64,000 nucleotides of DNA from Halioglobus sp. (GCA_039990395.1 JBDXFZ010000144.1:37469-101468), one strand, 5' to 3'. Positions 4,393 to 33,679 are shown, counted from the stretch's first letter. Program-made: numbers and translations. The notes: a model not told the origin generated them from the letters alone.

Positions 4393-4647
4393 GATGTCCC
4401 CTGAGTACGCTGAGCCCCAGCTTGATGCCAGCTCGGAAAGGAGCGAAGTTTAACCCAATTGATCGCGCCATTTAAGGGGAATGAGATCAATAGCATGACA
4501 TGTCGGCAATTTGCCCCACTACACCGTTTGATTGCTGATTTTTTGGTGCCCTTGTTGGTTAGCTTTTTGGTTTGAACAAAGAGATTGAAGCGCTGCGAGG
4601 ACCGTTTCAGAGAAACGAGCCCCCGCAATGCATTCGAACAGGCACAT

Positions 4648-4959
4648 CTATGAGCTGGCGATCAGGTTCTGCTTGGACCGGTAGGCGCGCAGCTCGGCAT
4701 TGTAGTTGTCGGCGGCCCTGATAGCCTTCGCTGCCAGCATGTCTCGTTTAACCGAGCTTAACGATCGACTCCTGCAGTCGAGATATGACTCAACGGACGC
4801 CACGAACGCCTTGGTCTGATTCTGCGCAGAGTACATCGCCTCCTCTGAAGCCACCTCCCCTTTTGGGACAACTGGCGACTTGCCCGGTCTTTCCGCTGGG
4901 CACTCTGACCACGCGTTCAGTGAAAAAACCATTGCTAAAAGTGCTACTAAAGACTTCAT
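4648..4959 (-). CDS. small secreted hypothetical protein
   Basis: The ORF has an internal start MKSLVALLAMVFSLNAWSE (signal peptide) preceded by GAGG. No recognisable domain. The upstream 11 codons of the track ORF are probably not translated. Confidence 0.5.
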   Translation of the reverse strand: MKSLVALLAMVFSLNAWSECPAERPGKSPVVPKGEVASEEAMYSAQNQTKAFVASVESYLDCRSRSLSSVKRDMLAAKAIRAADNYNAELRAYRSKQNLIASS

Positions 4960-5288
4960 AACCACTACCTCATCATTGTGTGAATACAGCACCGCCGACA
5001 GGCGATATGTTACATATATTCACACAGTGGGTAACAATTGCAAGCAAGACATGTTTTTTGCAGCTGCTTAACTTACTGTTATTTATGGATTTAATTTCGA
5101 TCGCATCTTTCCCCTGCACCACTATGTTGCGATAAGTAACGTTAAAGGCGCGAGATTCACCAAAATGAAGCAGCCTATTGAAAAATCGCACCATCTAGAA
5201 CCGTGGACTGCACCAATTTATCCCCATAATTCGCGCCAGAGTTTGGTAATATTCGCGCAAATTAATTTCACAGCTCGAGTCTATTCCC

Positions 5289-6953
5289 ATGGCCCAGTAC
5301 GTTTACACAATGAATCGGGTGGGCAAAATCGTCCCACCTAAGAAGAAAATACTCGAGGACATCTCTCTATCATTCTTCCCCGGTGCGAAGATTGGCGTGC
5401 TAGGCCTCAATGGCTCGGGTAAGTCCACGCTATTGCGCATTATGGCTGGCGTAGATACCGACATTCTTGGTGAGGCGCGACCGCAACCCGGTATCAAGAT
5501 TGGTTATCTGGAGCAGGAGCCCCACCTAAACCCCGATAAAGATGTGCGTGGCAACGTGGAAGAAGGCGTGCAAGAAGCTTTGGATGCGCTAGCTGGACTG
5601 GAAAAAGTGTACGCCGACTACGCAGAGCCCGATGCCGATTTCGACACGCTGGCCAAAGAGCAGGCGCGGCTGGAAGATGTTATCCAGGCCACAGACGCTC
5701 ACAACATCGATCATCGCCTGGAAGTGGCCGCCGATGCGCTTCGCTTGCCACCCTGGGATGCAGACGTGAGCACACTGTCTGGTGGCGAACGTCGTCGAGT
5801 GGCGCTGTGCCGACTTCTACTGTCTAACCCCGACATGCTACTACTGGACGAACCGACTAACCATCTGGATGCTGAAAGCGTGGGCTGGCTGGAGCGGTAT
5901 CTGCACGATTTCCCGGGCACTGTGGTCGCGATTACTCACGACCGCTACTTCCTCGACAACGCCGCTGGCTGGATCCTGGAACTAGACAGAGGACGCGGCA
6001 TACCCTACGAGGGCAACTATTCCAACTGGCTGGATGCCAAGGAACAGCGACTGGGTCAGGAACAACGCCAGGAGGCCTCGCACCAGAAGGCCATCAAAGC
6101 AGAGCTGGAATGGGTGCGCTCAAACCCCAAGGGAAGACAGGCCAAGAGCAAGGCTCGCCTTCAGCGCTTCGAAGACCTTCAATCACAGGACTTTCAGGCC
6201 CGCAACGAAACTAACGAAATCTATATTCCCCCCGGCGCACGCCTGGGCGATAACGTGATTGAAGTCAAAAACCTGAAGAAGCAGTTTGGCGACCGCCTCC
6301 TGTTCGAAAATGTAAGCTTTACCGTACCCAAGGGCAGCATCGTGGGTATCATTGGCGCTAACGGCATGGGTAAGTCCACCTTGTTCAATATCCTCATGGA
6401 AAATGAACAGCCAGACGGTGGCGAGGTTAACATCGGCGAAACCGTGCAACTGGGCTATGTTGACCAATCGCGTGACGACCTCGACGGCGGCAAAACCGTG
6501 TGGGAGGAAATCTCAGACGGACAGGACAATATCCGAATTGGCACTTACGAGGTTGGCTCCCGTTCATACGTAGGTCGCTTTAATTTTAAGGGCTCTGATC
6601 AGCAAAAGTTTGTGAAGGATCTGTCGGGGGGCGAACGCAACCGCCTGCACCTTGCCAAGCTGCTGAAGCAAGGTGCCAATGTATTGCTATTGGACGAACC
6701 CACCAACGACCTCGACGTGGAAACTTTGCGTGCACTTGAGGAGGCCTTACTGGCGTTCCCAGGCGCGGCCATGGTGATATCGCACGATCGCTGGTTTCTG
6801 GACCGGATCGCAACCCACATACTGGCCTATGAAGACGATGGCGGCGTGGTATTCCACGAGGGCAACTTTACCGAATATGAAGAAGACCGGCACCAGCGCC
6901 TAGGCGCCGCCGCCGACCAACCTCACCGTGTGAAGTATCGTAAACTGAAGTAG
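5289..6953 (+). CDS. ettA: energy-dependent translational throttle protein EttA (ABC-F ATPase)
   Basis: 554 aa starting MAQYVYTMNRVGKIVPPKK; two ABC cassettes (GLNGSGKST, GANGMGKST; LSGGERRR/LSGGERNR). Confidence 0.92.
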   Translation: MAQYVYTMNRVGKIVPPKKKILEDISLSFFPGAKIGVLGLNGSGKSTLLRIMAGVDTDILGEARPQPGIKIGYLEQEPHLNPDKDVRGNVEEGVQEALDALAGLEKVYADYAEPDADFDTLAKEQARLEDVIQATDAHNIDHRLEVAADALRLPPWDADVSTLSGGERRRVALCRLLLSNPDMLLLDEPTNHLDAESVGWLERYLHDFPGTVVAITHDRYFLDNAAGWILELDRGRGIPYEGNYSNWLDAKEQRLGQEQRQEASHQKAIKAELEWVRSNPKGRQAKSKARLQRFEDLQSQDFQARNETNEIYIPPGARLGDNVIEVKNLKKQFGDRLLFENVSFTVPKGSIVGIIGANGMGKSTLFNILMENEQPDGGEVNIGETVQLGYVDQSRDDLDGGKTVWEEISDGQDNIRIGTYEVGSRSYVGRFNFKGSDQQKFVKDLSGGERNRLHLAKLLKQGANVLLLDEPTNDLDVETLRALEEALLAFPGAAMVISHDRWFLDRIATHILAYEDDGGVVFHEGNFTEYEEDRHQRLGAAADQPHRVKYRKLK

Positions 6954-6995
6954 CGCGATATAGTTACCCCAGACTGAGAGAGCACGAGTTTTACT

Positions 6996-7364
6996 ATGAG
7001 CGAGATTCGCAACGAGCGTCGCAGATTCACACGAGTCAGTATCGATCTTCCCACGGAAGTTCACCAGGGTGGCAGTGTTTGGAAACAACGCCTGATCGAC
7101 CTGTCTTTACTGGGGGCAGCCACCGACCAACCCGACATCTGGGACGCTCAGTACAACGAACCCTTTACCTTAATCATCCACATCAGTGATGACCAACAGC
7201 TGGAACTGCATGCCTATCTACAGCATGTAGAGAGTGGCCGGCTCGGGTTCAGTGTTCAGCATGTTGATCGAGAAAACATCGAGCCGCTACGCGATCTGAT
7301 CGCACAGCACATCGGCGATATAGCGATTCTAGATGAGGAGATGAGCCGGCTAGAGCAAAGTTAG
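6996..7364 (+). CDS. stand-alone PilZ domain protein (c-di-GMP receptor candidate)
   Basis: 122 aa with RRRFTR (RxxxR) and DLSLLG (D/NxSxxG) motifs at the canonical spacing. Confidence 0.7.
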   Translation: MSEIRNERRRFTRVSIDLPTEVHQGGSVWKQRLIDLSLLGAATDQPDIWDAQYNEPFTLIIHISDDQQLELHAYLQHVESGRLGFSVQHVDRENIEPLRDLIAQHIGDIAILDEEMSRLEQS

Positions 7365-7493
7365 CTTTGTTCACCAAGCAGGTTGAATTGACGATAGAAA
7401 TCTGGGGTTGTCACCGAGGCAGAGCCAGCCTGTTGCGAGAAAAATCTGGCTTCGGACCAAATGCCTTAGCCAGCAGTTAGCTAGTGCTAGAGG

Positions 7494-8537
7494 CTATTGC
7501 AAAAAGAAGTAGGCTCCAGCAGCAACCGCCAGCCCTACTACAATCAATGCCACAATTTTTGCCCCTGATCCATTTGAGGCAGTGTTACCTGAATCTCCGC
7601 CAGCTGCCTCAACTGGAGCCGCACCTGCTGTTCCACCCAGCGCGGAATGAAAAACGACTGTTGCCATCCCCAGTGTTATCTCATCGCCATCGGCAAGATA
7701 CGCCGTCAAACGCTTCTCACCATTTACGAATATGCCATTGGCTGAAACAAGATTTACAAGGCGCCAACGGCCGCCTTGATGCACCAACTGAGCGTGACGA
7801 CCTGAAACACTCTCTTCTGTCAGCACAACTTCACATCGTTCCTCGCGGCCTATCTCCCATACATCAGACTCAGCAGTACCACCTGGCTGGAGTTCGAATA
7901 CGGCACCGGCACTCTCACCCTCACTCACAACAATCAGGTGAGGCAAATCAGACGCGCGCCCTACATCAGCAGCGCTAACACCTGGCGCGATATCATCTAA
8001 CGAAAGTACCCGTGTTTCTTCACCGGTACCCGTATCTACCCAACTTCCAGGCAGATCGAAGCTGCCCGATGCTACCGCGGCGGGTTCGCTTTTAGGCTCG
8101 GGCTCAGGGGGTTTTTCGTCTGCCTTTTCTGCCGCTGGCTCACTTGGTGGGGCGGTGGATGGTGCAGGCTCAGGCTCTGGAATATCTACAACCGTGGCGT
8201 CGTCCATTTCTACTACGGTGGCGTCAAGGTCTTCGTCTGAGCCCTGCGTTTCGAGTTTAAAGCTGTGTTTCTCAAAGCTGATCTCATCGCCACCATAGGC
8301 CTGCGTCGGCTTCTCTATACGCAATCCATTAACGCGAGTGCCATTGGAAGAACCCAGATCCTCGATCATTACTTTCTTGGCTTCTACCTTAATCACCGCA
8401 TGATTTCGGGAAACTTTGGCGTCGTCTATGGTAAGCCCGCAGTCAGCCGAACGGCCCACAATGGTCTCTCCCTCTAGCATTACCGCCTCACCTTCTGAAG
8501 GTACCAGCTTGGCAACAAATTCCTGATTTTCGAGCAT
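7494..8537 (-). CDS. dual FHA-domain protein, C-terminally membrane anchored
   Basis: FHA1 is GRSADCGLTIDDAKVSRNHAVI...SSNGTRVNG. FHA2 is GREERCEVVLTEESVSGRHAQL...SANGIFVNG. A Pro/Glu-rich linker joins them, and the C-terminal TM is IVALIVVGLAVAAGAYFFL. Start set at MLENQE (ATG 8535-8537); the track ORF's longer start would overlap the PP2C gene. Confidence 0.8.
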   Translation of the reverse strand: MLENQEFVAKLVPSEGEAVMLEGETIVGRSADCGLTIDDAKVSRNHAVIKVEAKKVMIEDLGSSNGTRVNGLRIEKPTQAYGGDEISFEKHSFKLETQGSDEDLDATVVEMDDATVVDIPEPEPAPSTAPPSEPAAEKADEKPPEPEPKSEPAAVASGSFDLPGSWVDTGTGEETRVLSLDDIAPGVSAADVGRASDLPHLIVVSEGESAGAVFELQPGGTAESDVWEIGREERCEVVLTEESVSGRHAQLVHQGGRWRLVNLVSANGIFVNGEKRLTAYLADGDEITLGMATVVFHSALGGTAGAAPVEAAGGDSGNTASNGSGAKIVALIVVGLAVAAGAYFFLQ

Positions 8538-8548
8538 ATCGATCTCTC

Positions 8549-9574
8549 TTACCGCCCTGTCACAATAAGCCACGCCAGGTAAGCAGCGGCTACTACCGTC
8601 ACCGTGGTCATTCCTATCCAAAATGTTCGTGAACGCGATTTGCGCTTTGCTTCCTTCACCGCGAGTTTGCGCATTGCTTCAACCTGCGCCACCGGTATCA
8701 TCTGCGTAGCGCCCGCACCCTTTGGTGCTACCCGTCGCACTCCCGCCGGTTGCGCTGGCGCACGGTCAAGCTCAGGTAGGCCACTATACTTGCCCGTAGA
8801 AGGATCAAAGCTCCATACCGGCTCCGGTCGCTGTTGCACTGATCCTCGCACGGACTCATCCGCCTCCACCAGAACTACCGTTACGTTGTCACGTCCCCCG
8901 GCATCCAGTGTCGACTGGATCAGGGCCTGGCAACGTTCCGTCAACGTTTCTCCGGAGCGAAGTATGTCGATAATCTGCTGATTTTCCAACACATCGTTAA
9001 GCCCATCGCTACACAGCAGAAGTATCTCACCTGCGTTGATACGACCGGCAATAGCGCCTATATCGAGGTTGTCCTCGCTTTGCAAACCAACAGCCTGAAC
9101 AATCACATTCTTGCGAGGATGGTTACGCGCTTCCTCGATCGTAATCCGACCCAGTTCCAACTGGGCAGCCACAAACGAGTGATCTCTAGTCAATAAATGA
9201 AGCGAACCATCCCACAGGTAGGCGCGGCTGTCGCCCACCCAGTCAATACGATATTCGGCGCCCTGCATACGCATAGCCACCACTGTAGACGCCATGCCGG
9301 GCTTGCCCTTGCCTGCTTCCAGAGCGGCCATCACGTCGTCATTGGCGTTGCGGATGGCCTCTTCCAAACCTAACCCGGCACCAAGATCTCTCTCGATGCT
9401 TTCGCAGGTGATGCCACTGGCAATCTCACCTGCGTGATGACCGCCCACACCATCTGCCACCAATAGCAAACCAATTGATTCATTAATCAGAAATGCATCT
9501 TCGTTATGCTTGCGCCGAGCGACATCGGTTTGTCCGGCACTGCTGATCCCCGGAGCAAGCTGCACAATACTCAT
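8549..9574 (-). CDS. PP2C-family (PPM) Ser/Thr protein phosphatase, C-terminal TM anchor
   Basis: 341 aa with RKHNEDAF, VADGVGGHHAGEIAS, LLCSDGL and GGRDNVTVV motifs. C-terminal TM is TTVTVVAAAYLAWLIV. ATGA overlap with the upstream cytochrome gene. Confidence 0.85.
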   Translation of the reverse strand: MSIVQLAPGISSAGQTDVARRKHNEDAFLINESIGLLLVADGVGGHHAGEIASGITCESIERDLGAGLGLEEAIRNANDDVMAALEAGKGKPGMASTVVAMRMQGAEYRIDWVGDSRAYLWDGSLHLLTRDHSFVAAQLELGRITIEEARNHPRKNVIVQAVGLQSEDNLDIGAIAGRINAGEILLLCSDGLNDVLENQQIIDILRSGETLTERCQALIQSTLDAGGRDNVTVVLVEADESVRGSVQQRPEPVWSFDPSTGKYSGLPELDRAPAQPAGVRRVAPKGAGATQMIPVAQVEAMRKLAVKEAKRKSRSRTFWIGMTTVTVVAAAYLAWLIVTGR

Positions 9575-10875
9575 AAGGAATCCCTAAGTTTTCGCGACAT
9601 CACTGCAAACTGTTTGGGAACAAAGACATTCTCGTCTGTGACAGTGGCAAACAGCTGGTCGAGTTGCTGTTCGTAGCTACCCTGATCATCCAGAGTGATT
9701 GTAATAGTTTCAATGGCCAGAAAAATTTGTTCCGCAGAGGTGAAATGCCTAAAGTCGCCTGCGCCTGCGCGCTCCGCCAGCTGCTGACGTAATAGTTTTA
9801 AATCAGCTGTTTGATACGACCGATTGCCCAACTGCTCAACCAGGGGTTCTAGCACAGCAACAAGAGTTTTAGACTCAGCCACCACTGCACTACGAGACTT
9901 GACTGACTGCACATGTAATGCCACTCGACCCTGTGCAACCTTAGTAGCTGCCGGCGATCCTAGGGCGTTTAACACAGCTTCCAATACCAAAAGAGTTCCG
10001 TCGTTTAACCGGACACTACCCGGCGGTAGCGCTCGACTTCCCCCCTCCGACTCCCAGCGCAGGTCATTCATAGGATGATGGCACGAGTGACATTGATAAA
10101 AGGACAGTTCCGGCATGAGCGTGTCGCCGCCAAACCAATCGGTCTGCAGGAGCTCCAACGACTGGATGCTGGTCAATACCAATCCAGAAAGCCACATGTT
10201 TACCGACGGCGTATATGGCTTACGCTGTGAGTAGTCGGTGTCCACCTCGTAGTGGGCGGGCTGATTAACGGTAAAGGTTTCCAGTTCGAAACTTAACCGG
10301 GGATGGCCTGCGCCCATGATTGCATGCGTTGCAAATTTGTTTCGCGTACCCAGATGACAAGACAAGCACAATCTTGCCCGCGCGGCTGGCTGCTCCGTTG
10401 GATACATGCCAGCCGCTACGTTGTCCGCATGCGACGTCCCCTGCTCGGCATGACTCTGCAACCACTGACCCGAACCACCATGGCAGGCTTCGCAACCCAC
10501 ACCATCAGAGATCTGGAAACGCCTACCTCTACTCTCCACTGCTACATTATCTGCATGGCAATCCAGGCAGATATCCGCCGCATGTGCACTCGGTAAACCC
10601 AGCTTTGCTGCCATGGCCTGCGATTGCTGTGTTTGCAGCGTGCGGTAAGCGCGCGAGTGGAAATCCTCGCGCAACCATATCCGGTATTCATTCAACCAGA
10701 CGGTAGACTCGGGATCAGGACTGACCTTACCGTGACAGACGCTGGTTGCGCACGTCGCAACGCCTTCGTGCACATTCTGCGCTGTTTCAGGCAACAGTTG
10801 GGCGTGCACCTGTACAGCGCAACACACTGCCCCTAGCCACGCTATAAGCGCTAAGGCTTGTTTTCGACAAACCAA
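9571..10875 (-). CDS. periplasmic pentaheme c-type cytochrome (c554/c3-like)
   Basis: Signal peptide present. Heme motifs CATSVCH (CX4CH, as in cytochrome c3), CLDCH, CEACH, CLSCH and CHSCH. TTG start overlaps the upstream gene by 25 nt. Confidence 0.75.
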   Translation of the reverse strand: MVCRKQALALIAWLGAVCCAVQVHAQLLPETAQNVHEGVATCATSVCHGKVSPDPESTVWLNEYRIWLREDFHSRAYRTLQTQQSQAMAAKLGLPSAHAADICLDCHADNVAVESRGRRFQISDGVGCEACHGGSGQWLQSHAEQGTSHADNVAAGMYPTEQPAARARLCLSCHLGTRNKFATHAIMGAGHPRLSFELETFTVNQPAHYEVDTDYSQRKPYTPSVNMWLSGLVLTSIQSLELLQTDWFGGDTLMPELSFYQCHSCHHPMNDLRWESEGGSRALPPGSVRLNDGTLLVLEAVLNALGSPAATKVAQGRVALHVQSVKSRSAVVAESKTLVAVLEPLVEQLGNRSYQTADLKLLRQQLAERAGAGDFRHFTSAEQIFLAIETITITLDDQGSYEQQLDQLFATVTDENVFVPKQFAVMSRKLRDSL

Positions 10876-13800
10876 GGCTTACCCTCCTCATCAAGGAACA
10901 TTTTGCGCATTTCATCCTGGTTCAACGGCCTGGAGCCAAGACGACCGAAGACCGCTATCTGCCCGCCCGTTTCGTCTACGCCGCGATCACGCTCTAGCGG
11001 CCGACTGATTGACAACGCCGGCGACTGCGTCGGATAAACTGCTATCAATTCCGGCTTGGGCGCCGGACTGAAACCGTAAAATTTCGGCTGGCTGTCGGGC
11101 GACGTGAGCTGCACAACCTTCAGGCCAGAGCCGCCATCTGCCACATAAGCAAACAAAGAGGCGTTGGTACTGGCAACAGTGACATCGTAGCTATCACTCA
11201 GTCCATCTTTAAAGCTTTCTACGAGCTTCATCGCTTCAGGATTTTTGATATCAACGATTGTCAGGCCATCCGCGCCGCTAGCGACATAGGCAAACGTACG
11301 TGCCAGATGCAGCCGGCGTGCTTGCCCGAGCGAAATTGTGTTGTCCGGTGTGACAATCGGCTTCGATGGGTCAGTAATATCAACTACTTTCAGACCATCC
11401 GCATCTGTCACAAACAGATACCTGAACTGCTGTGCTAGAGAATGACCGTTACTCAGAGGCAGAACGCTTTCGAGCTTGGGCTCCAAAGGTTTGTCGATAT
11501 TGACTGTAACCAGACCTGCATCAGCAATGATATAGGCGTACATTCCACCAAGAACCATGTGTCGCGCACCTTTAAGCACACCCTGATCATTCCAAGTGAC
11601 CGCACGCGTGAGCTTATTGTTGCGAGGCTCTCCGTCCATGAGAGTATCGATATCAACGAGAATCAGCCCTTCTTCGCTATCGAGAATGTAGGCATAGGTA
11701 TAGAGCGGATGAAACGGCTGCTCTTCGTTAATGTCACGCATCAACTCGCCTTGGTTGCGAGACGGCTGAATCGGCTGAGTAGTCGGCAGCACAACACAGG
11801 TCGCGTTCTTGCTATCGATATGCGTATCGTGGCCCAGCCTGCTGAAGGGGGCGGTGATTATGCGCTGTGATACACCTTTGTTCGCAATGCTGGCCACATC
11901 GTAGACTTGCGTACCTTTCTCACCTTCAGCCACGAACAAATATTCTCCCCGCAACTGCAGGCATTCCGAAACGCCACTGGTATGCGGGTAACCATGCTGT
12001 AGCACGCGATCATTAGTCTGATGCTCGGCAAAATAGTCCGGATACGCATACTTTTGAAGGTAGCTACCAATCACCGCCTGTGGCTCATCCCACTCTGTTA
12101 CTTGTACACCGGTAATATGCTGTTCACCACCTACATACGCTATGTGCCCGAGAAAATTCACGAAGCCCGTACCGTACATCAGAAGCTGCGCCATGATCGC
12201 ATTGTTATCGTTGTTCTTACTTAGGTGACAATCTTCACATTGCTTTGTCTCGGTCTTTCGCACTGTATGTGCAAAATGAGGATTGAATGCCTGAGAGCTA
12301 TAGCCACTTGCTGCGATTGGTGGCTGCTGGATGTAAATCTTCTCTCGATTGGAATTAGTAGAAGAAAGCACAAGAGCAGACGTAGATCGTACGGGTGCAA
12401 TCTTTCCGCCTTTGGCCGTTTCGCGCCGGCCCAGCAAAAACATCTGGTCGCGCGCTACTTGTGGGTTGTACGTAGCGTAGTTACGTGAACTCCCACCTTC
12501 ATAATGGTGTCGCTCTGTTTTTTCGTTCGCCTGAATCGGCAGGTGACAGCCGCCGCAACTCGTTGTCCAAGAGGTATGACAGGTATAGCACTCCATCTCT
12601 TCATCTGAGTGCGCGAGCTCATCCATGCTCACCTCTGCACCCCAAGCTTGTGATGCGGTATCAGTGCTCATGGTTTTTGCGCGCGCCGCTTCTGAGTTGT
12701 AGCCCGTGTGTTCTGGGTCAACGCTATCCTTCACGAGGCTGACCTCCCACTCCAGCTCAGGATCCAGCACCGATCGTTGAATCAGCTTTTCTCCTATCCA
12801 CTCAAAACGCCGACGTCCATCTGGATTTCTAATTGCCCCTAAATCTGTGCCGCCTTCCAATGCGGCCGGGCCTGAGGTAAAGAGGTTCGGGTAGGCAGAA
12901 ACAGAGCCATGGCAATCCTTGCAATCTATTTCTACAGCGGCGGCGACTTCGCCATAAATGTGTCCATTGCCATGATTGTCTTGTGAGTAGTGGCAATCGA
13001 CACAGTGCATGCCGGCATCAAGGTGAATTGAAGACATATGAACAGCCTTCTGAAATTTATCTGGATCTTCATCGCTCACCTGCGCACCTTCAGCATCCAA
13101 CAGGTTGCCATCACGATCGCGCTTGAACACCGCGCGGAAGTTCCAGCCGTGACCATGGTAATCGGCGAACTGGGTATCTTTTAGCTCTGGATTCATCTCA
13201 GACACCGCTTTGAGAAACTCTAGGTCCGCCCACTTTCCGCGCGGCGCAGCACCCTCAGGGTTTCTCTCTAACACCTTGCGGCGCTCTTCGTCTGTTGGGT
13301 ACACCTGTTTTTCTGGCCACATAGACGGCGCGTCAGACTCGTAGTCCCACATCGTGTAACCCAAGTAACTGTTCACGAACATATTGGGCTGGTGCATATG
13401 GCAAACCATACACTGGCTGGTTGGAATTGCCCGTGTGAACTTGTGTTGCAGCGGATGTCCCGGCTCCTCTTTGGGAATCATTGGATCTACCGACTGGCTT
13501 TCCCCAATATGGCCAAACTGCGCATAGGCACCTGAGTGGCGTGGATCACGATCGTTCGCATAAACGACATGGCAGGCAGCACATCCGGAGTTACGGTAGT
13601 CACCGGGCTGATCGTTAGTACCCATAAACCAGGTATGCGGGTCATTCAATCGAGTCTTGGTAATATTAATCAGCGGCACTGAAATGCGGGCTCCCGTTCC
13701 GGGGCCACGATTACTCTGACGAAAATCTGGTCTGCCGGGTTCTTCAAGACGTTGTAACTGTCCCAGCGCATTGGGCAATCCCGTTTCTGGAAACAGGTTA

Positions 13801-14603
13801 CTGATATTACGTCCACCACGCTCAAACACCCTGAAAATATCGCCGGGTTTCACCGTCTCCCACGCGGGCAAGGGATAGAGCTCTGGTAAAATTCCTGCCA
13901 GAGTCATTTCTTCGGTAGGTATTACTGGTCCCTTTACCGCCGCACCCACGCCTTCGCGCGTATAGGACTCGCCTAAAATATAGCGTTTGAAAGGTAGTAT
14001 TCCGTTGTTGTACGAGGCTCCTCCCCACAACATGGCTGAGGTCGCCATCAAACTGCGCTCGGCAGCTTCAATGATGGGCAGATGGCAGGCCCCGCAGGCT
14101 TCTCTGGCGATGCGATAGTCCGAGGGGTTAACAAACCGCACGAACTCAGGACTTTCCCTGTTGAGCAAAGTGTAGGTTTGTTCCGGATTGGCGCTTGATG
14201 GATAGTGCCAGTCATCAGGATAACTTGGGAGAACGTGCGCTGACTCCATCGCCGCCAGGTAAGCTGGATTCGACAAACCCTCGGTCACACCCTGAGGCGC
14301 TCGCACCGTGGCGTTACCCCCGTGGCAGTCGGTACAACCCAATTTAACTGCCGGATTCATGTGCATTGTTTTTTCATCAGTACTGGTGTGACAGGTTTCG
14401 CACCCTTCCGACTTAGCCGCCATCTGTTCCTGTGTCTGACTGACCGGCGCGTTCGGCGCAGTCACGTATTGCCTCGCTACCGCCTCGCCGCCCGAAGAGC
14501 CGAGAGTAACGCTCACAGGCAATGCGACGCCGACCAGCATCAGGCTCGCTAGCCAGATTTTCATCACCGCTGAAGTTGTTGGTTTTCCCTGTGCCAAGAT
14601 CAT
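10851..14603 (-). CDS. 1250-aa decaheme c-type cytochrome fused to a C-terminal LVIVD-repeat beta-propeller
   Basis: Signal peptide present. Ten CXXCH motifs: CETCH, CTDCH, CGACH, CAACH, CMVCH, CVDCH, CKDCH, CYTCH, CGGCH, CEDCH. The C-terminal third carries GLILVDID, GLVTVNID, GLKVVDIT, GLTIVDIK and GLKVVQLT repeats. Confidence 0.8.
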   Translation of the reverse strand: MILAQGKPTTSAVMKIWLASLMLVGVALPVSVTLGSSGGEAVARQYVTAPNAPVSQTQEQMAAKSEGCETCHTSTDEKTMHMNPAVKLGCTDCHGGNATVRAPQGVTEGLSNPAYLAAMESAHVLPSYPDDWHYPSSANPEQTYTLLNRESPEFVRFVNPSDYRIAREACGACHLPIIEAAERSLMATSAMLWGGASYNNGILPFKRYILGESYTREGVGAAVKGPVIPTEEMTLAGILPELYPLPAWETVKPGDIFRVFERGGRNISNLFPETGLPNALGQLQRLEEPGRPDFRQSNRGPGTGARISVPLINITKTRLNDPHTWFMGTNDQPGDYRNSGCAACHVVYANDRDPRHSGAYAQFGHIGESQSVDPMIPKEEPGHPLQHKFTRAIPTSQCMVCHMHQPNMFVNSYLGYTMWDYESDAPSMWPEKQVYPTDEERRKVLERNPEGAAPRGKWADLEFLKAVSEMNPELKDTQFADYHGHGWNFRAVFKRDRDGNLLDAEGAQVSDEDPDKFQKAVHMSSIHLDAGMHCVDCHYSQDNHGNGHIYGEVAAAVEIDCKDCHGSVSAYPNLFTSGPAALEGGTDLGAIRNPDGRRRFEWIGEKLIQRSVLDPELEWEVSLVKDSVDPEHTGYNSEAARAKTMSTDTASQAWGAEVSMDELAHSDEEMECYTCHTSWTTSCGGCHLPIQANEKTERHHYEGGSSRNYATYNPQVARDQMFLLGRRETAKGGKIAPVRSTSALVLSSTNSNREKIYIQQPPIAASGYSSQAFNPHFAHTVRKTETKQCEDCHLSKNNDNNAIMAQLLMYGTGFVNFLGHIAYVGGEQHITGVQVTEWDEPQAVIGSYLQKYAYPDYFAEHQTNDRVLQHGYPHTSGVSECLQLRGEYLFVAEGEKGTQVYDVASIANKGVSQRIITAPFSRLGHDTHIDSKNATCVVLPTTQPIQPSRNQGELMRDINEEQPFHPLYTYAYILDSEEGLILVDIDTLMDGEPRNNKLTRAVTWNDQGVLKGARHMVLGGMYAYIIADAGLVTVNIDKPLEPKLESVLPLSNGHSLAQQFRYLFVTDADGLKVVDITDPSKPIVTPDNTISLGQARRLHLARTFAYVASGADGLTIVDIKNPEAMKLVESFKDGLSDSYDVTVASTNASLFAYVADGGSGLKVVQLTSPDSQPKFYGFSPAPKPELIAVYPTQSPALSISRPLERDRGVDETGGQIAVFGRLGSRPLNQDEMRKMFLDEEGKPWFVENKP

Positions 14604-14612
14604 TGTCGCCCC

Positions 14613-16496
14613 TTAGAAAGTCAGGATTACATTAAAAAGAACAGAGTAAGGATCTTCATCGCCGTACAGATCCTTGAAACCATCACCACCCAACAGTTGA
14701 GCGTAGGACGCTCGCACCACCACATTCTGACTCATAAACGGCCGCCAAATGACTGCTGCAGACAAATCCATGCCGATCTCTTCATCAACATTGCTTTGCG
14801 CCCGCGCTACCTCAAGTACTTCAGTCTCGGCAAACGCCAGGTAGTTGGCGTTAAATGACAAGCGCAGTTCGGGCAAAATATCCATATCAACACCACCACC
14901 AAGCAGCAAGATACCGGGATTGGTGAAGTTTGATTGCCCGTGCTCTTTGGAGGACCTAAGCGAGTTGAGGATTCCGTTGCGCTGTGACAACGCTACGCGT
15001 CCACCACCGATCAATGGCACGCCCTGCCGTATCCAATAGCTGGTATCGGCACCTGCAAACTGGGGGTTTTCGAAGATGGCATCGAAACCCTCACTCTTGC
15101 CGTCAAACGGATCATCATCGCCAGAACCATAAAGGAACGACAGGCGCGCCCGCATCCAGTCAAAGTCCATCGAAGGTTCAACCGCAAAGAAATACGCCTG
15201 AATATCTGAGTCCTCCGATCCGAAGACTGAGTCTTTCTCTTCACCTAGTGCCAAATAAGCCGAGGTTGTTAAATTGAGACGGCCAAAATGGCCGTCGCCA
15301 CTGTAGCCCAGGTAATACACGTCGTACTCTCGCAGGCGCTCCTCACCTATCGACGCAGGCCTTGCGATAAAGTCGTTGGTGTCATAAAAAATTTCGTCCT
15401 CACGATTTCGATTGTAGATGGCCGAAAATTGCGAGAAAAAACCTAGTGTAGGCTCATCCTGAAAATAGAGGTTCGCAACGTAAACATCGTCGTCGCGCAG
15501 AGACTCGGTAACATCGTTCAAACCGGAATTAGTATCTTTCTCCATCCGCCGGAACCAGGCAAGATTATACTGATAGCGGTTGTTGTCGCGCGTACCGAAG
15601 AGGCGAACGCCAAACGGAGAGTCCTGAAAAAGAAAGCCCCTGAAGTCACTAGAGAATGGCTGAATACCCACACGCACACTATCGAAATCGTAGCGCTCAG
15701 AGACATCTCTTAAGTGTTTATCTACAAACGCTGCTTGAATACCAATGTGATTGTCTTCTCGGGTTCGACCAATCGCCGGATCAGCATTCGTGCCTAGTGT
15801 TTCATCCAACTTCGTATAGTTGTAGTTGAATACAGGCGTGAACCTAAACTCCCAATCCGGGGGTCTGAACACAGTATCGCCCTGATAGTACACAAGCTCT
15901 ACTGCCAGATTCTGATTAATCAGCGTTTGGTCGAGGCCACCCAGTACATCTAGCGAGCCTGGGCTGTTTGTCGTTTGTACTCCAACAGGCGTTGGCACTT
16001 CACGAACTTCGACAACCGTGTCGGAGATGACCGCCACATTGAAGAACCAGTCATCGTGGATCGGTTTGTCGCCCTTAATCGTATTTTGATCATAGGGATT
16101 AAACCAGTTGTCTTCATAACCCAGGCTGTCGACTATGCGCCAGCGATCGGGAATCGGCACGGCCTCAACATACTGCTCGGCCGTAGGACGGGGAATCGGT
16201 GAATAGCGACGTGGTAAAACAGTTCGTTCACGCGCTACGGGTGTTTCGCGTAATACTTCACCTGTCTCTTCATTAACCACCGTTTCCCGATACTCGCAAT
16301 CCCGGTTGGAGCCACCCGCCCTGCGACGTCCGCTACGCGCACGGTCTCGCACATCTTTATCATCACAGGCAGGCAAAGCGGTGTCAGCCGTTTCTGATTG
16401 TGCCGACGCATTTATGGGTGCTGCCAATATCATTAGCGCAAATGCAAAAGCTATGGAAGTTGTGAGAACAGGCCGTAACGAGGTTGTAGTAGTCAT
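14613..16496 (-). CDS. large outer-membrane beta-barrel protein (porin-like candidate)
   Basis: 627 aa. Signal peptide ...APINASA-QSE. Alternating amphipathic Tyr/Gly/Asp-rich segments and a C-terminal ...FNVILTF with terminal Phe. No family recognised. Confidence 0.6.
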   Translation of the reverse strand: MTTTTSLRPVLTTSIAFAFALMILAAPINASAQSETADTALPACDDKDVRDRARSGRRRAGGSNRDCEYRETVVNEETGEVLRETPVARERTVLPRRYSPIPRPTAEQYVEAVPIPDRWRIVDSLGYEDNWFNPYDQNTIKGDKPIHDDWFFNVAVISDTVVEVREVPTPVGVQTTNSPGSLDVLGGLDQTLINQNLAVELVYYQGDTVFRPPDWEFRFTPVFNYNYTKLDETLGTNADPAIGRTREDNHIGIQAAFVDKHLRDVSERYDFDSVRVGIQPFSSDFRGFLFQDSPFGVRLFGTRDNNRYQYNLAWFRRMEKDTNSGLNDVTESLRDDDVYVANLYFQDEPTLGFFSQFSAIYNRNREDEIFYDTNDFIARPASIGEERLREYDVYYLGYSGDGHFGRLNLTTSAYLALGEEKDSVFGSEDSDIQAYFFAVEPSMDFDWMRARLSFLYGSGDDDPFDGKSEGFDAIFENPQFAGADTSYWIRQGVPLIGGGRVALSQRNGILNSLRSSKEHGQSNFTNPGILLLGGGVDMDILPELRLSFNANYLAFAETEVLEVARAQSNVDEEIGMDLSAAVIWRPFMSQNVVVRASYAQLLGGDGFKDLYGDEDPYSVLFNVILTF

Positions 16497-16498
16497 CG

Positions 16499-18472
16499 CT
16501 ATTTACCTCCACACACGTTCTGCTGATCACTATCGATATAGGGCGTCTGCGGACACTGAATATATCTCAGTCTTTCTCCCATGGGCGCTAGCCTATCGGC
16601 ACGTATTTCGGGAGGTGCGTTATTAATGCTGTTTCCGAGCTGCTGGCCGGCCTCATCCAGTCCCAGGAAAGCAATCATGTCATCCTGATCGATACCATCG
16701 CCAGAAACACCGATGCCGCCCACCAACTGATTACCTCGGTAGATAGGCACACTACCTGGAAAAATCTGAATACCATTTGCGATTCTGGGCGCTGCGGCAT
16801 CGGGACAATTTGACTGGACGTCCTGATCAGTTGCACCTGCAGCAAACAACACGTGGGTAAAGATGCTGTTAATCGTCAGATCAAGCTGTAACCCGGTCGA
16901 AAAAACACTCCATTCATCGTTTGCGAAGGGCTTACTGAACGGACCACTGGGATTCCCCCTAATGCCATCGGGGTAGAATGGCCGCGACAGATTGCCACCC
17001 GCTCTGTCAGAAAAAGCCGTACCGTCTGTCAGTGCATTCGGGCCCACAAATGCCTGCACTTGATCAACATAGGTGGGAATAAACACTTCGGCTTTGGGAG
17101 ACAGATCTGGATTTAAGTAAACCGCGGGGGTTGTGATTGCCCGCAAGAACGCGGCCGCGTCGCGTGAGGAAAAAAGCGCAGCTGTACGCGCTTTCTGCAG
17201 CGAAACATCGGCACCAAAAACCGGGGCATCAGCCGAACGGACAACTCCCAAAATTACACCCTGACTATCAACTACGGAGATAGTCACTCTGGCGGGCGTA
17301 CCAATCGGTCGGCGTATTTGCGCCCGGCTGCGGGCCGCGACTACCAGCGCGCTTTCAAGCAGCGTGGCTACCTCGCTGGCCGACAACGGAGCCACGGGAA
17401 GCGTGCCGCCATCGGAGCCGCCTCTGGGCGGGAAGCGATTGTTGTTGTCTTCGTCTACGAATACGAACGATTCTATACTTGCCAATGCACCTGCCCTGAT
17501 ACCGGATGCCGGTGTGCCAAATGCGGTGCCTGCAATAATGCGTCCGCCACCATAACCTTGAACATCAACAAGATTGCCACGGTCTACCAACGAATCGTAA
17601 GCAGGTGCTTGCTCCGGAGACACTGGCAAATTGCCAAACTCAACATCCGTAAAGCGAAGAGTTTTTCCCTCAACGGTAATTCGGTCGGCACGCCTGTCAC
17701 GAGGCGCTGCAAAATCGTAGGTCGCAGCCAAGGCTATTTGCTCATCTATATCACGATCGTCATTGAGAATATTCTTATCGATTGTGTAGCGACCATCGGC
17801 AATGACGCCTACACCACCGACCGGTGTGCCAGATTTATAAAGCGGAAAACCACCTGGATCTGCTGACAAACCCAGCGGGGAACGCTGAGGTCCTACGTTA
17901 CTGCCCGCCGAAGCGCCGGACAGCACAAAATCAGAGCACGCGAGCTGACTAAACTGCACCCCAAACAACGGGCCGGCAGGTTGGTTCTCTTCGCCTGGGT
18001 TGAAGTGCTCCTGAACAATTTGATTAGCGGTACGGCTGGAGAACGCATTGCCTTCGCTAGATAAGTAGGCGCCGGTTACCGCCTTGGTGATTGCAGCAAG
18101 CGCTCCCGCATTGGTGCCGGCTGGTAGCACAACTCCTTCAAGACCGGTGCTGATCGTAGTGGGAAAAGTCGTGCCTATCTCAACTGCGGCTCCTTGGACA
18201 GCCATCCTGTGAATAGCCAATACGTTGCCTACGCGATCTACCACGGCGATCGTCGCCTCAACACCCAACGCCTCTGCTTGGGCTATTCCCTGCGCCAGAA
18301 CCTGCTTTACATCAGCTATCGTAAGCGATGTTGATTGCGTAGCACACTGACCCACACACGGTGTCGAACTATCATCTGTCGCGGGTGACGCCCCTGCGCT
18401 ACTGCCACCGCTGCCACCCCCCCCACACGCGGTGAGTAACAACAAGCCGGCCGCACATCCAAGTAACCTCAT
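16499..18472 (-). CDS. lipoprotein with two GlcG/HbpS-like (DUF336) heme-binding-type domains
   Basis: Lipobox LLLTAC followed by a Gly/Ser linker. Domain 1 is LTIADVKQVLAQGIAQAEALGVEATIAVVDRVGNVLA...GGVGVIADG. Domain 2 is VTISVVDSQGVILGVV...GGIGVSGDGIDQDDMIA. Confidence 0.65.
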   Translation of the reverse strand: MRLLGCAAGLLLLTACGGGGSGGSSAGASPATDDSSTPCVGQCATQSTSLTIADVKQVLAQGIAQAEALGVEATIAVVDRVGNVLAIHRMAVQGAAVEIGTTFPTTISTGLEGVVLPAGTNAGALAAITKAVTGAYLSSEGNAFSSRTANQIVQEHFNPGEENQPAGPLFGVQFSQLACSDFVLSGASAGSNVGPQRSPLGLSADPGGFPLYKSGTPVGGVGVIADGRYTIDKNILNDDRDIDEQIALAATYDFAAPRDRRADRITVEGKTLRFTDVEFGNLPVSPEQAPAYDSLVDRGNLVDVQGYGGGRIIAGTAFGTPASGIRAGALASIESFVFVDEDNNNRFPPRGGSDGGTLPVAPLSASEVATLLESALVVAARSRAQIRRPIGTPARVTISVVDSQGVILGVVRSADAPVFGADVSLQKARTAALFSSRDAAAFLRAITTPAVYLNPDLSPKAEVFIPTYVDQVQAFVGPNALTDGTAFSDRAGGNLSRPFYPDGIRGNPSGPFSKPFANDEWSVFSTGLQLDLTINSIFTHVLFAAGATDQDVQSNCPDAAAPRIANGIQIFPGSVPIYRGNQLVGGIGVSGDGIDQDDMIAFLGLDEAGQQLGNSINNAPPEIRADRLAPMGERLRYIQCPQTPYIDSDQQNVCGGK

Positions 18473-20166
18473 TGTTCGAGTTCCCCCCTCGCTAATATTG
18501 AGCGAGTTCCATCAGATTGATGAAACGCATGGCAGCCCACGCAGTCCACTGCACTGAATCCCTTATCCTGAGAATGGCAGGTAAGACAGTTGTCCTGTCC
18601 GGGGATGAGAACATCACTAGCCTTCTCCGAAACGGAGGCCTCGTGGCAGGTTTCGCAGACCTCGTCTTCGTCTCCGGCAAGACTCAAATGACTCACGTGA
18701 TCAAAGCGGCTCTTGGGATACCAGTCGTCTATAATTTTTACTGGCTGAACGAACCAGCGATCACTTATGTCGGCAAGCCCCGTATCCATCACTTCATGAC
18801 AGGTGATACATCCTGTCTCTGCAAACTGATACTCAGCTTCTTTAAGTGCTTCGGCGCGACCACAGTCCAGCCCCGAACCCTGACATTCAGCCAGCCCTTC
18901 ACGTTTCCCTGGAACTCGCCTTGGCTTGGTTGCTGCACGCTGCTGCCTTAACACCGGATCGGTAAACTCTCTAATAAAATGCGCTTCCATCGCGACAATC
19001 GCTTCACGCAAGTTACCGTGTGGCAGCTCAATGTCTGGCTCAAAAACATCAAAATTGAGCGTGTGGCATGAACGGCAGTGCTGATCCATAGTAATCGGTT
19101 CAAAGTGTTCGCCATCGTCTTTCAGGGTATGGCAAGAGTCGCACTGAAGTGCATCCCCACTCTGTGCATCCTGTACCTTGTCGATATCCAGATGCACTGT
19201 GTGCGTGAACTTCAAATTTGATGCTTCTGCAATTTCACCTTCGCCCCGCCTTACGCGTTCAGTTGCCCAACCATGCGCTCCGCCGGGCCCCTGCGCAGTA
19301 AGCAACGACACGCGAAACTCCGGATGCGCAGCCTGCGTAAACGCTGAAACGCTGCCTGGTAGTGCAGCCATAGAAGTAACCCAAGTATCAGGGTCGGCGT
19401 GGCAATCTACGCACAAGCCATTATCCCGATTCACTATCTGAGGTGGCTCGTTGTGTTCGCGGTGACAACTACCACACCTTGCTTCCGCGAACACCTCAGT
19501 CTCGTGTAGCGAAACATCAACATGTTCACGCAGGTTTCGGTGACAATCCAGACACGTATCATCTTTTACCATTTTGAAAGGCTCAACGTGACACGCCTGA
19601 CAATCTTCGCTGATACCGGCGGTCTGATGCGCAGCTGCCAGCGGGCCTGAAGACCAGACTCCATCGTCAGGAAGGGGCGTCTGACGCAGCATAGAGGCAA
19701 GCTGGGGTGACAGCATGCCTCCAAGCGGTATCAGCAAAAACAGAGCCATCACGACCAGCAGTAGAATCCAGCTCAGGCGCCGAACGTTCCATATTCTGCT
19801 CTGCAACTCCATCCCATCAAGGAGAAAGGACGCTGGGGAGCTTGAGAGCGGCGTCTGCTCCAGCGCAAAATCAAATCCAACGGGGGCCGCCACCACCTCG
19901 AATCGAAAACCGCCAAATTCAAAATTGTCGCCTGCGGCAAGAGCTGCCTTGCTCGTTAATTTCTGATTGACGGTGAGCTGCGCTCGCTTTGACGTTATCT
20001 GCCAGTTATCGCCAGACGATCGCCAAATCTGAACACTACCCTTAGCGCCAACAATTTGAACCAGCGCGTTCTCGTCTCCGCCAAGAGTAAGGCTGTCTGC
20101 CTGAAACTCTGTTTCGGCAGCCTCGGCACTTTCACGACCCGTCTTCTTTCTGATAAGAAAATACAT
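18469..20166 (-). CDS. inner-membrane-anchored decaheme cytochrome c3-family protein with a ~120-aa cytoplasmic N-terminal domain
   Basis: One TM (LSWILLLVVMALFLLIPLGGML), then ten CXXCH motifs: CQACH, CLDCH, CGSCH, CVDCH, CDSCH, CRSCH, CITCH, CETCH, CLTCH, CVGCH. ATGA overlap with the next gene. Confidence 0.8.
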   Translation of the reverse strand: MYFLIRKKTGRESAEAAETEFQADSLTLGGDENALVQIVGAKGSVQIWRSSGDNWQITSKRAQLTVNQKLTSKAALAAGDNFEFGGFRFEVVAAPVGFDFALEQTPLSSSPASFLLDGMELQSRIWNVRRLSWILLLVVMALFLLIPLGGMLSPQLASMLRQTPLPDDGVWSSGPLAAAHQTAGISEDCQACHVEPFKMVKDDTCLDCHRNLREHVDVSLHETEVFAEARCGSCHREHNEPPQIVNRDNGLCVDCHADPDTWVTSMAALPGSVSAFTQAAHPEFRVSLLTAQGPGGAHGWATERVRRGEGEIAEASNLKFTHTVHLDIDKVQDAQSGDALQCDSCHTLKDDGEHFEPITMDQHCRSCHTLNFDVFEPDIELPHGNLREAIVAMEAHFIREFTDPVLRQQRAATKPRRVPGKREGLAECQGSGLDCGRAEALKEAEYQFAETGCITCHEVMDTGLADISDRWFVQPVKIIDDWYPKSRFDHVSHLSLAGDEDEVCETCHEASVSEKASDVLIPGQDNCLTCHSQDKGFSAVDCVGCHAFHQSDGTRSILARGELEQ

Positions 20167-20170
20167 AGCG

Positions 20171-21049: not shown

Positions 21050-21051
21050 AG

Positions 21052-23532: not shown

Positions 23533-23547
23533 CGTCGAAACCCCTAG

Positions 23548-28138
<4,591 letters not shown>

Positions 28139-33576: not shown

Positions 33577-33679
33577 TCCAATCCCTGATGAATTTTTCTT
33601 TAACTGCTGTTCGTCCCGCGGCAAGCTGGGTATCCTAGCAGACTTCGTTGTGTACTCGTTGCACCTTTACGGTCATATC

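Follow-up and report, generated by a model that had tools for sequence, protein, structure and literature searches.

The question raised by this locus is what a protein that joins ten heme-binding motifs to a C-terminal LVIVD beta-propeller does for its host. The protein, 1250 amino acids long and hereafter the target, is encoded on the minus strand at 10851-14603 of a window of 64,000 nucleotides from Halioglobus sp. (GCA_039990395.1 JBDXFZ010000144.1:37469-101468; positions are counted from the first letter of the window). Although conserved to the degree of a housekeeping enzyme, the target is unnamed and lacks both a structure and an assigned function. We propose, with about even confidence, that it is the distal subunit, and the one under the strongest constraint, of a conserved trans-envelope module of seven genes for electron transfer, a variant of the predicted, uncharacterised porin-cytochrome cluster known as PCC4 or Ptd. 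Most of the functional information on the target is carried by this operon context, which a first-pass annotation of the window had missed. Anaerobic metal reducers and iron oxidisers are the organisms in which periplasmic and extracellular electron transfer is understood best, whereas this module is found mostly in aerobic heterotrophs.

The target gene and its product

A single open reading frame crosses 10851-14603 on the minus strand and translates into the 1250 amino acids of the target, with the Shine-Dalgarno sequence AAGGGG placed 6-7 nucleotides before its ATG at 14603. The plus-strand frame of the same interval is full of stops, and a plus-strand reading was rejected on this ground. 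The gene delimited in the first-pass annotation is real and of the length given, and its strand is here corrected to minus. The product starts with a predicted signal peptide of the Sec, signal peptidase I type (about residues 1-37; 14493-14603, minus strand), as indicated by the position of its only hydrophobic segment (residues 16-34) at the N-terminus and by the N-termini of orthologues, most of which show AxA-like ends without cysteine. A lipobox cysteine, as in MtrC and OmcA, was found neither in the target nor in most of its orthologues, and one is present in a Planctomycetota homologue (locus L081, LLWGC); no secretion system could be linked to the target. With a plain signal peptidase I signal, no lipobox and no linked secretion system, the surface exposure proposed earlier for this protein is not supported. 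Judged by its signal peptide and by motifs conserved in its orthologues, the target is an exported multiheme cytochrome c.

The heme domain (about residues 60-860; 12024-14426, minus strand) was delimited from motifs, alignments and an AlphaFold2 model. It carries CXXCH motifs at residues 68, 90, 170, 341, 398, 534, 561, 672, 683 and 789, ten in all versus a mean of 0.0135 in shuffles of the same composition, and all ten are retained in 79 of 81 orthologues. Pfam models for cytochromes c3 and c7 score above threshold. A motif scan of the target found neither CXXCK nor CX3-4CH, all ten hemes being of the standard CXXCH kind, and about 15 histidines outside these motifs are conserved across orthologues, which makes bis-histidine ligation of every heme possible. 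With that many conserved histidines and no atypical motif, an open heme coordination site cannot be inferred from the sequence, and this earlier suggestion finds no support. The idea that a low heme density marks the protein as an enzyme was likewise set aside as weak, since the heme domain alone has about 82 amino acids per heme, within the ordinary multiheme range of 60-70 ± 30 (as cited in PMC5566968).

Conservation in the target peaks in the block FADYHGHGWNFRAVFKRDR (residues 476-500; about 13104-13178, minus strand), with a column conservation of 0.93, and the H-G-H-G-W in it could, together with about five spare conserved histidines, form a candidate non-heme metal or catalytic site. 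A second segment of 47 residues, rich in glycine, proline, arginine and asparagine (about residues 259-305; about 13689-13829, minus strand), is conserved at 0.82-0.86. Despite this strong conservation, its predicted local distance difference test score (pLDDT) is about 31 in both AlphaFold2 runs, which suggests a structure that depends on a partner or cofactor; the segment may fold only with a partner, heme or the barrel protein encoded next to the target. The AlphaFold2 model covers residues 52-1250, was built from a 47-sequence alignment and has a mean pLDDT of 79 and a predicted template modelling score of 0.84. In it the heme domain mixes alpha helices and coil, and about residues 700-775 form a beta-rich subdomain; a model of the heme domain by itself is poorer than that of the whole protein (pLDDT 66).

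We searched for relatives of the heme domain by fold and by sequence, with the following results. First, Foldseek returned no PDB match for it (best E 2.7), a weak negative since the model lacks hemes and has a pLDDT of 66. Second, PDB searches with the single target sequence and with a 47-sequence profile gave only insignificant matches to c7 cytochromes, NrfA, ActA and YncE (best E 0.02-0.03). Third, hhalign aligned 46 columns of the target profile with Escherichia coli NrfA at a probability of 73%, pairing hemes 6-7 of the target with NrfA hemes 4-5. This likeness amounts to a common local di-heme module and is no sign of family membership.

The propeller (about residues 871-1200; 11004-11993, minus strand) is better defined. 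Pfam LVIVD (PF08309) matches with 71.9 bits against a cut-off of 20.2 (E 2.6e-20), and the five blades quoted in the first-pass annotation are all present: GLILVDID at residue 979, GLVTVNID at about 1031, GLKVVDIT at 1070, GLTIVDIK at 1113 and GLKVVQLT at 1160. Degenerate blades at about residues 885-905 and in the C-terminal region raise the number above those five, and the AlphaFold2 model, whose pLDDT is mostly above 90 here, places about 28 strands in some seven four-stranded blades over the C-terminal 330 residues or so. Foldseek with the whole model returned only generic propellers, at probability 1.0 and low identity, namely the zinc chaperone AztD, BtuG/YncE and WD40 proteins, in agreement with a propeller fold. 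A conserved C-terminal tail follows (RPLERDRGVDETGGQIAVFGRLGSRP...; 10854-11003, minus strand), with a column conservation of 0.87 for residues 1201-1225 and invariant arginine, aspartate and glycine residues in a deep alignment. The core of the earlier description, ten CXXCH motifs in an exported protein fused to an LVIVD propeller, is borne out by motif count, Pfam, AlphaFold2 and the signal peptide.

These propeller data also bear on whether the target could simply be a surface adhesin or structural LVIVD protein that happens to carry a heme wire, its propeller having no specific catalytic or docking role. In favour of this, LVIVD repeats are described in Pfam as modules of the cell surface, the propeller region of the target is matched by giant LVIVD proteins of 2000-6000 amino acids, and a non-heme LVIVD protein has been proposed as an attachment factor in Tenderiales. 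Against it, the target has just one propeller, a compact and strongly conserved one in which many charged residues are invariant, and its set of partner genes is fixed, whereas adhesins usually evolve fast and vary in repeat number, and the target has no anchor or sorting signal. We consider such a role highly improbable.

A seven-gene module with the target as its most conserved member

More than 7,800 database proteins match the target at E <= 1e-5. The best 120 of them are full-length and 69-99% identical, the nearest (99%) coming from a Halioglobus metagenome-assembled genome (MAG), and where they carry a name it is 'hypothetical' or 'LVIVD repeat-containing'. A genome scan with one genome per species found orthologue loci in at least 595 species-representative genomes, and 80 loci were kept for the locus counts given below. 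The kept orthologues are full-length and 63-98% identical to the target, and their hosts belong to Halieaceae, Steroidobacteraceae, Woeseiaceae, Nevskiales, Spectribacter, Burkholderiales, Casimicrobiaceae and Usitatibacteraceae, as well as to Rhodospirillaceae, Kiloniellales, Myxococcales and Vicinamibacteria, a span that takes in Gamma-, Beta- and Alphaproteobacteria, Myxococcales and Acidobacteriota. Cultured hosts include Steroidobacter agaridevorans, S. gossypii, Parahaliea spp., Kineobactrum spp., Oceanicoccus sagamiensis and Spectribacter spp., and the hosts are for the most part aerobic heterotrophs that live in sea water, sediments, soils and streams. Beyond these, a library clustered at 50% identity added only about 15 full-length clusters, 41-66% identical to the target and including Planctomycetota and Candidatus Xenobia (41-54%); such divergent clusters have 8-10 CXXCH motifs at unchanged spacing and keep the propeller.

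The target is the sixth of seven genes that follow one another on the minus strand in the order FAD/iron-sulphur protein, cytochrome b, anchored decaheme cytochrome, HbpS-like lipoprotein, barrel, target and c554-type cytochrome. Their intergenic gaps run from -4 to +9 nucleotides with one exception: the c554-type gene, as called from a TTG start, overlaps the last 25 nucleotides of the target gene. Its true start may lie further downstream, or its translation may be coupled to that of the target. A scan of 7000-25500 for promoters and terminators gave sites fewer than or equal to those in shuffled sequence.

The first gene (21052-23532) encodes an 826-amino-acid FAD/NAD(P) oxidoreductase, predicted to be cytoplasmic, in which Pfam and NCBIfam recognise a thioredoxin reductase (TrxR)-like domain without CxxC and two cyclic-nucleotide-binding (cNMP) domains; four [4Fe-4S] motifs lie in cysteine clusters at residues 663-673, 700-712, 731-741 and 790-806, and neither signal peptide nor transmembrane segment was found in the protein. 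The second (20171-21049) encodes a 292-amino-acid inner-membrane protein of ferric-reductase-like, di-heme b type, with WX3HX13H at residues 80 and 266 and SGXXG at residue 121. The former motif occurs twice in 50 of 50 orthologues and the latter is present in 49 of the 50; the Pfam ferric-reductase model PF01794 was not detected in this protein, which gave only weak matches to PF01292 and DUF4405. The third (18469-20166) encodes a 565-amino-acid cytochrome with ten CXXCH motifs, a Pfam multiheme match, a cytoplasmic N-terminal segment of about 130 residues and one transmembrane helix at residues 134-152; the N-terminal segment was considered as an FHA domain and rejected for want of Pfam support.

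The fourth gene (16499-18472) specifies a 657-amino-acid lipoprotein (lipobox LLTAC) with three HbpS/GlcG-like domains (Pfam PF03928 in three stretches, E 1.4e-21), co-conserved in 63 of the 80 loci and also in Planctomycetota. The fifth (14613-16496), which ends 9 nucleotides upstream of the target, encodes a 627-amino-acid protein predicted to be an outer-membrane beta-barrel from its signal peptide and its aromatic C-terminus: it ends in ...NVILTF, and 50 of 50 orthologues likewise end in an aromatic residue. It has a weak outer-membrane porin match in NCBIfam, one orthologue is named 'Alginate export family' in UniRef (a single source), and neither single-sequence nor profile searches found a PDB match, nor Pfam a match even at E 10. 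At about residues 44-100 the barrel protein has a conserved, highly charged and Arg-rich N-terminal extension that precedes the predicted barrel and has two invariant or near-invariant cysteines (CDDxDxRDRxRSxRRRxGGSNRDCEYRE), which could be a plug or a partner-binding segment. After the target, the seventh gene (9571-10875) encodes a 434-amino-acid periplasmic cytochrome of c554 type with four CXXCH motifs, one CX4CH and a helical C-terminal domain; Pfam Cytochrome_C554 scores 44.7 bits against a cut-off of 20.8, and 69 of 69 orthologues have the same number of motifs.

All seven genes stand together in 46 loci, and single genes are present in 51-80 of the 80, counts that are affected by the many loci cut by contig ends. 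The complete module spans three proteobacterial classes, Myxococcales and Acidobacteriota, and its signatures, 10, 10 and 4+1 hemes, hold throughout the orthologues. Within the 46 complete loci the target is the member of highest identity in 40, with a median of 67%, followed by the barrel (59%; range 49-99%), the HbpS-like lipoprotein (56%), the FAD/iron-sulphur protein (48%), cytochrome b (45%), the c554-type cytochrome (43%) and the anchored decaheme cytochrome (33%). By this measure the target resembles an enzyme, or a protein that docks precisely, more than it does a generic wire. The first-pass annotation, which had argued for an enzyme from heme density, gains in this respect from the conservation and not from the argument it used.

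The same constraint invites another explanation, namely that the target is a periplasmic multi-electron enzyme, a reductase or oxidase of a soluble small molecule, for which the barrel would be a substrate-specific porin and the c554-type and anchored decaheme cytochromes the link to the membrane, much as c554 and cM552 link hydroxylamine oxidoreductase (HAO) to the membrane. Several observations fit such an enzyme: the 63-67% identity across phyla, highest in the module; conserved non-heme blocks such as YHGHGW with five spare conserved histidines; a plain Sec signal without lipid anchor; a true c554-family cytochrome gene downstream; the local NrfA heme-4/5-like module, together with an NrfA-like counterpart in Ptd; and the alginate-export name of the barrel, with Geobacter ExtI as an instance of a porin thought to admit substrate. 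Yet all CXXCH motifs are standard and there are histidines enough for bis-histidine ligation, leaving no candidate active-site heme, and the target has no relative by fold or sequence among known multiheme enzymes. Nor would a soluble substrate need an outer-membrane lipoprotein partner or a dedicated, co-conserved barrel of 627 amino acids. We regard the periplasmic enzyme as possible and, on balance, doubtful.

The loci of distant relatives show which parts of the module are invariant. In the Planctomycetota locus L081 (1138-14329), the target homologue (44% identical) directly follows a barrel homologue (41%), with a triple HbpS-like protein and ResB/CcsA genes for system-II cytochrome c maturation adjacent. 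In Candidatus Xenobia and in two unclassified lineages the barrel homologue again lies immediately upstream, so that the pairing is kept where the target is only 41-49% identical. The membrane protein with two HX13H motifs is also present in L082 and L083; L083 has in addition a separate protein with cNMP domain and 4Fe-4S clusters, the counterparts of PtdC and PtdE being split there, and a 1296-amino-acid fusion (4278-8168) of three FHA domains, a nine-heme segment and an FAD domain. L084 encodes an FHA protein together with a 17-heme cytochrome. Since the barrel is directly upstream in all these divergent loci, the invariant core consists of barrel and target; the flavo-iron-sulphur and cytochrome b input and FHA-based control are recurrent, sometimes fused partners of this core. 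One metagenomic protein of 1648 amino acids (P0131) has 28 CXXCH motifs, the usual ten being preceded by 18 more, and looks like a heme wire joined by natural fusion to the N-terminal end of a decaheme-propeller protein, which suggests that electrons may enter the target at its N-terminus.

Proposed route, direction and control of the electrons

We infer that the seven proteins assemble physically into a chain across the envelope, as follows. Electrons from cytoplasmic NAD(P)H would enter the FAD of the 826-amino-acid protein and pass to its four [4Fe-4S] clusters, on a subunit that also carries two cNMP domains. From there the two b-hemes of the ferric-reductase-like protein would carry them over the inner membrane to the membrane-anchored cytochrome with its ten c-hemes, and the c554-type cytochrome would hand them on to the N-terminal end of the decaheme domain of the target. 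For the seven-bladed propeller we envisage docking on, or beneath, the neighbouring outer-membrane barrel, in company with the triple HbpS-like lipoprotein; the propeller would form the binding site of the final acceptor or partner, with the target serving there as catalyst or as relay. The place of the target at the end of the chain is supported by three observations, namely the invariant pairing with the barrel, the heme wire fused to the N-terminus in P0131, and the exceptional conservation of the target. The terminal redox role put forward in the first-pass annotation is probable in this sense, with the target as the distal element and the barrel gene directly upstream in every lineage checked; the surface location that went with it is the part that found no support.

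An outward direction is suggested by further considerations. The flavo-iron-sulphur subunit has no export signal. In the characterised systems with ferric-reductase-type di-heme proteins (NOX, FRE, and MsrQ with Fre), electrons are moved outward. Transfer in the opposite sense, from plausible external donors to NAD(P)+, would run uphill and against the membrane potential.

Electron uptake is the direction that would reverse this scheme: an extracellular or periplasmic donor, such as Fe(II), Mn(II), a reduced mineral or a cathode, would be oxidised and its electrons passed inward to the b-type protein and the quinone pool. Aerobic hosts could use O2 as the sink, and in the Hmc and Tmc systems of sulfate reducers periplasmic hemes can feed cytoplasmic iron-sulphur proteins. 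This is the direction that He et al. (PMC5566968) proposed for PCC4, which occurs in Zetaproteobacteria, in Hyphomicrobium and in Fe/Mn-removing filters. One orthologue (L002) comes from a Haliea MAG with the isolate label 'Biocath_Gamma_022', a single anecdote. The strictly co-conserved FAD/NAD(P) and four-[4Fe-4S] subunit, however, would have no role if electrons stopped at quinone, continuation to NAD(P)+ would presumably meet the energetic barrier noted above, and most hosts are heterotrophs and not known Fe or Mn oxidisers. Uptake seems unlikely to us on these grounds.

Some observations weigh against an outward trans-envelope chain with the target at its end, and they are best considered together. 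First, the target may never leave the periplasm, given the absence of a lipobox and of a linked secretion system. Second, the barrel is alginate-export-like by one source, and with 18 strands it would be too narrow for a cytochrome. Third, the membrane protein weakly resembles in Pfam the quinone-reactive cytochrome b561 and HyaC types, so that the donor could be quinol and not NAD(P)H, or the flow inward. Fourth, the flavo-iron-sulphur and cytochrome b genes are not adjacent in L081. Lastly, electron export has no obvious role in the aerobic heterotrophs that make up most of the hosts.

The flanking genes point to control of the module. Directly after it, and also on the minus strand, come a PP2C phosphatase (8549-9574) and a double-FHA protein (7494-8621), both identified by Pfam and each with a C-terminal transmembrane anchor. 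PP2C follows the module in 31 and double-FHA in 23 of the 80 loci, in Gammaproteobacteria, where the two are likely regulators of the module. About 5-8 kb upstream lie genes for a Ser/Thr kinase and a caspase (C14)-Sel1 protein (28202-29752 and 30694-32148, minus strand), and genes of all four kinds are again found close to the module in other loci from Gammaproteobacteria. The fusion of FHA domains to a heme/FAD protein in L083 suggests phospho-threonine control of the conduit, and the cNMP domains together with the FHA, PP2C and kinase association point to tight regulation.

Other neighbours appear to stand apart. A glutamate dehydrogenase gene (23548-24891, minus strand) ends 15 nucleotides before the start of the FAD/iron-sulphur gene; it is adjacent in 7 of the 80 loci, in close relatives only, and is therefore probably outside the module. 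Two genes upstream of the module, 24911-28138 (minus strand) encodes a 1075-amino-acid autotransporter with thrombospondin type-3 repeats and an InlB B-repeat-like domain, which is not conserved with the module (1 of the 80 loci). Further away, at 33545-34807 (plus strand), a 420-amino-acid open reading frame with three DnaT DNA-binding domains (Pfam E 3e-70) sits between a RadA-like gene and DnaB, an unusual arrangement.

It is tempting to speculate that the module represents a new class of terminal oxidoreductase, in which a decaheme-propeller enzyme, placed at the outer membrane alongside a barrel of its own and an HbpS-like lipoprotein, receives electrons from a split, NOX-like NAD(P)H input gated by cyclic nucleotides and by Ser/Thr phosphorylation (FHA, PP2C and kinase). 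This larger claim is tentative, and we would not call it probable. If it holds, hundreds of aerobic soil and marine species would have a regulated route for reducing something outside the cytoplasm, the candidate acceptors including Fe(III) or Mn(IV) where the purpose is acquisition, an oxidant where it is detoxification, and O2 with extracellular superoxide as the product. It could then bear on the source of bacterial extracellular superoxide, on reductive metal acquisition and on redox balancing at oxic-anoxic interfaces.

Comparison with known systems

By the tests run, the target does not appear to belong to the Mtr, DmsE, NrfA or ExtM families. With MtrCAB, MtoAB and PioAB the module shares an outer-membrane barrel encoded beside decaheme cytochromes and the idea of a heme chain that crosses the envelope. 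Its input, in contrast, is NAD(P)H, iron-sulphur clusters and cytochrome b and not a quinol dehydrogenase of CymA type, its barrel is unrelated to the solved structures, and the target lacks a lipoprotein signal. The MtrC/MtrF domain II/IV model PF22113 is absent from the Pfam matches of the target at E <= 1 and is precomputed for some homologues; for MtrA/DmsE (TIGR03508), the target has no NCBIfam match and the neighbouring cytochromes have weak, sub-threshold ones.

To NrfA, ONR and HAO the likeness consists of the local match to NrfA hemes 4-5, the c554-family gene downstream and enzyme-like values for conservation and amino acids per heme. The target differs from them in having no global sequence similarity (best PDB E 0.023), no fold match and no active-site motif; in such enzymes the latter may be CXXCK, a tyrosine cross-link or CX15CH, and all ten heme motifs of the target are CXXCH, with no CXXCK or CX3-4CH. 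The best NCBIfam match of the target is to Geobacter ExtM (NF040943, E 2.3e-21, in three short stretches), a 12-heme protein of the extHIJKLMNOPQS cluster, which is linked to selenite and tellurite and includes a porin-like protein, a cytochrome b and an iron-sulphur protein. Membership was rejected, as the match scores 75.7 bits against an equivalog cut-off of 800; ExtM also differs in heme number, in having no propeller and in its Rieske/bc-type partners. Propellers of another kind, of NHL type and separate, occur in the clusters of D. ferrophilus.

The closest counterpart is PCC4, described by He et al. (2017; PMC5566968) as comprising a porin, cytochromes of 4, 5 and 10 hemes, a membrane protein, an iron-sulphur protein and other redox proteins. 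The inner-membrane protein of PCC3 and PCC4 has five helices, two WX3HX13H motifs and SGXXG, and was likened to the ferric-reductase/NOX domain (PMC5566968). The cluster was later named ptdABCDEFG by authors who call its function 'completely unknown', with PtdA an NrfA-like pentaheme protein with a beta-sandwich, PtdB a porin, PtdC an FAD/NAD(P) oxidoreductase, PtdD a tetraheme cytochrome, PtdE a cNMP-binding protein with 4Fe-4S, PtdF ferric-reductase-like and PtdG a decaheme cytochrome (bioRxiv 10.1101/2023.11.21.568154).

Five of the seven genes described here correspond to PtdB-G, a match made from the published descriptions. The 292-amino-acid membrane protein (PtdF) has exactly the signature of two WX3HX13H motifs and SGXXG; a porin-type gene (PtdB) is present, its barrel predicted from signal peptide and aromatic C-terminus; the FAD/NAD(P) oxidoreductase and the cNMP-binding 4Fe-4S protein (PtdC and PtdE) are one fused protein of 826 amino acids; and decaheme and tetraheme-type cytochromes are found in the 565-amino-acid protein with 10 CXXCH (PtdG-like) and the 434-amino-acid protein with 4 CXXCH and 1 CX4CH (PtdD-like). 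Both clusters also occur in marine and soil Proteobacteria and in Planctomycetes. They differ in that PtdA has no gene here, its place beside the porin being taken by the decaheme-propeller target and the HbpS-like lipoprotein, and in heme counts of 10, 10 and 5 as against 10, 5 and 4. Going by these descriptions and by the motif signature, we class the module as a variant of PCC4/Ptd, itself a predicted porin-cytochrome cluster. We found no paper on the decaheme-propeller variant or its protein family and no follow-up work on ptd; literature searches combining 'LVIVD' with multiheme or cytochrome led only to the Tenderiales preprint, in which the LVIVD protein is separate and non-heme, and the MHCscan survey names no decaheme-LVIVD family.

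On the input side, the module resembles NOX, FRE and MsrQ-Fre in pairing an NAD(P)H flavoprotein of the cytoplasm with a membrane protein that has two b-heme sites of HX13H type, an arrangement by which electrons could leave across the inner membrane. Here, however, the flavoprotein is TrxR-like and continues into four 4Fe-4S clusters and two cNMP domains, and on the acceptor side stand 25 c-type hemes and an outer-membrane barrel, and not O2, Fe(III) or MsrP directly. If the module does export electrons from NAD(P)H under cyclic-nucleotide and phospho-threonine control, it would be a bacterial counterpart of the NOX and ferric-reductase systems, extended to the outer membrane.

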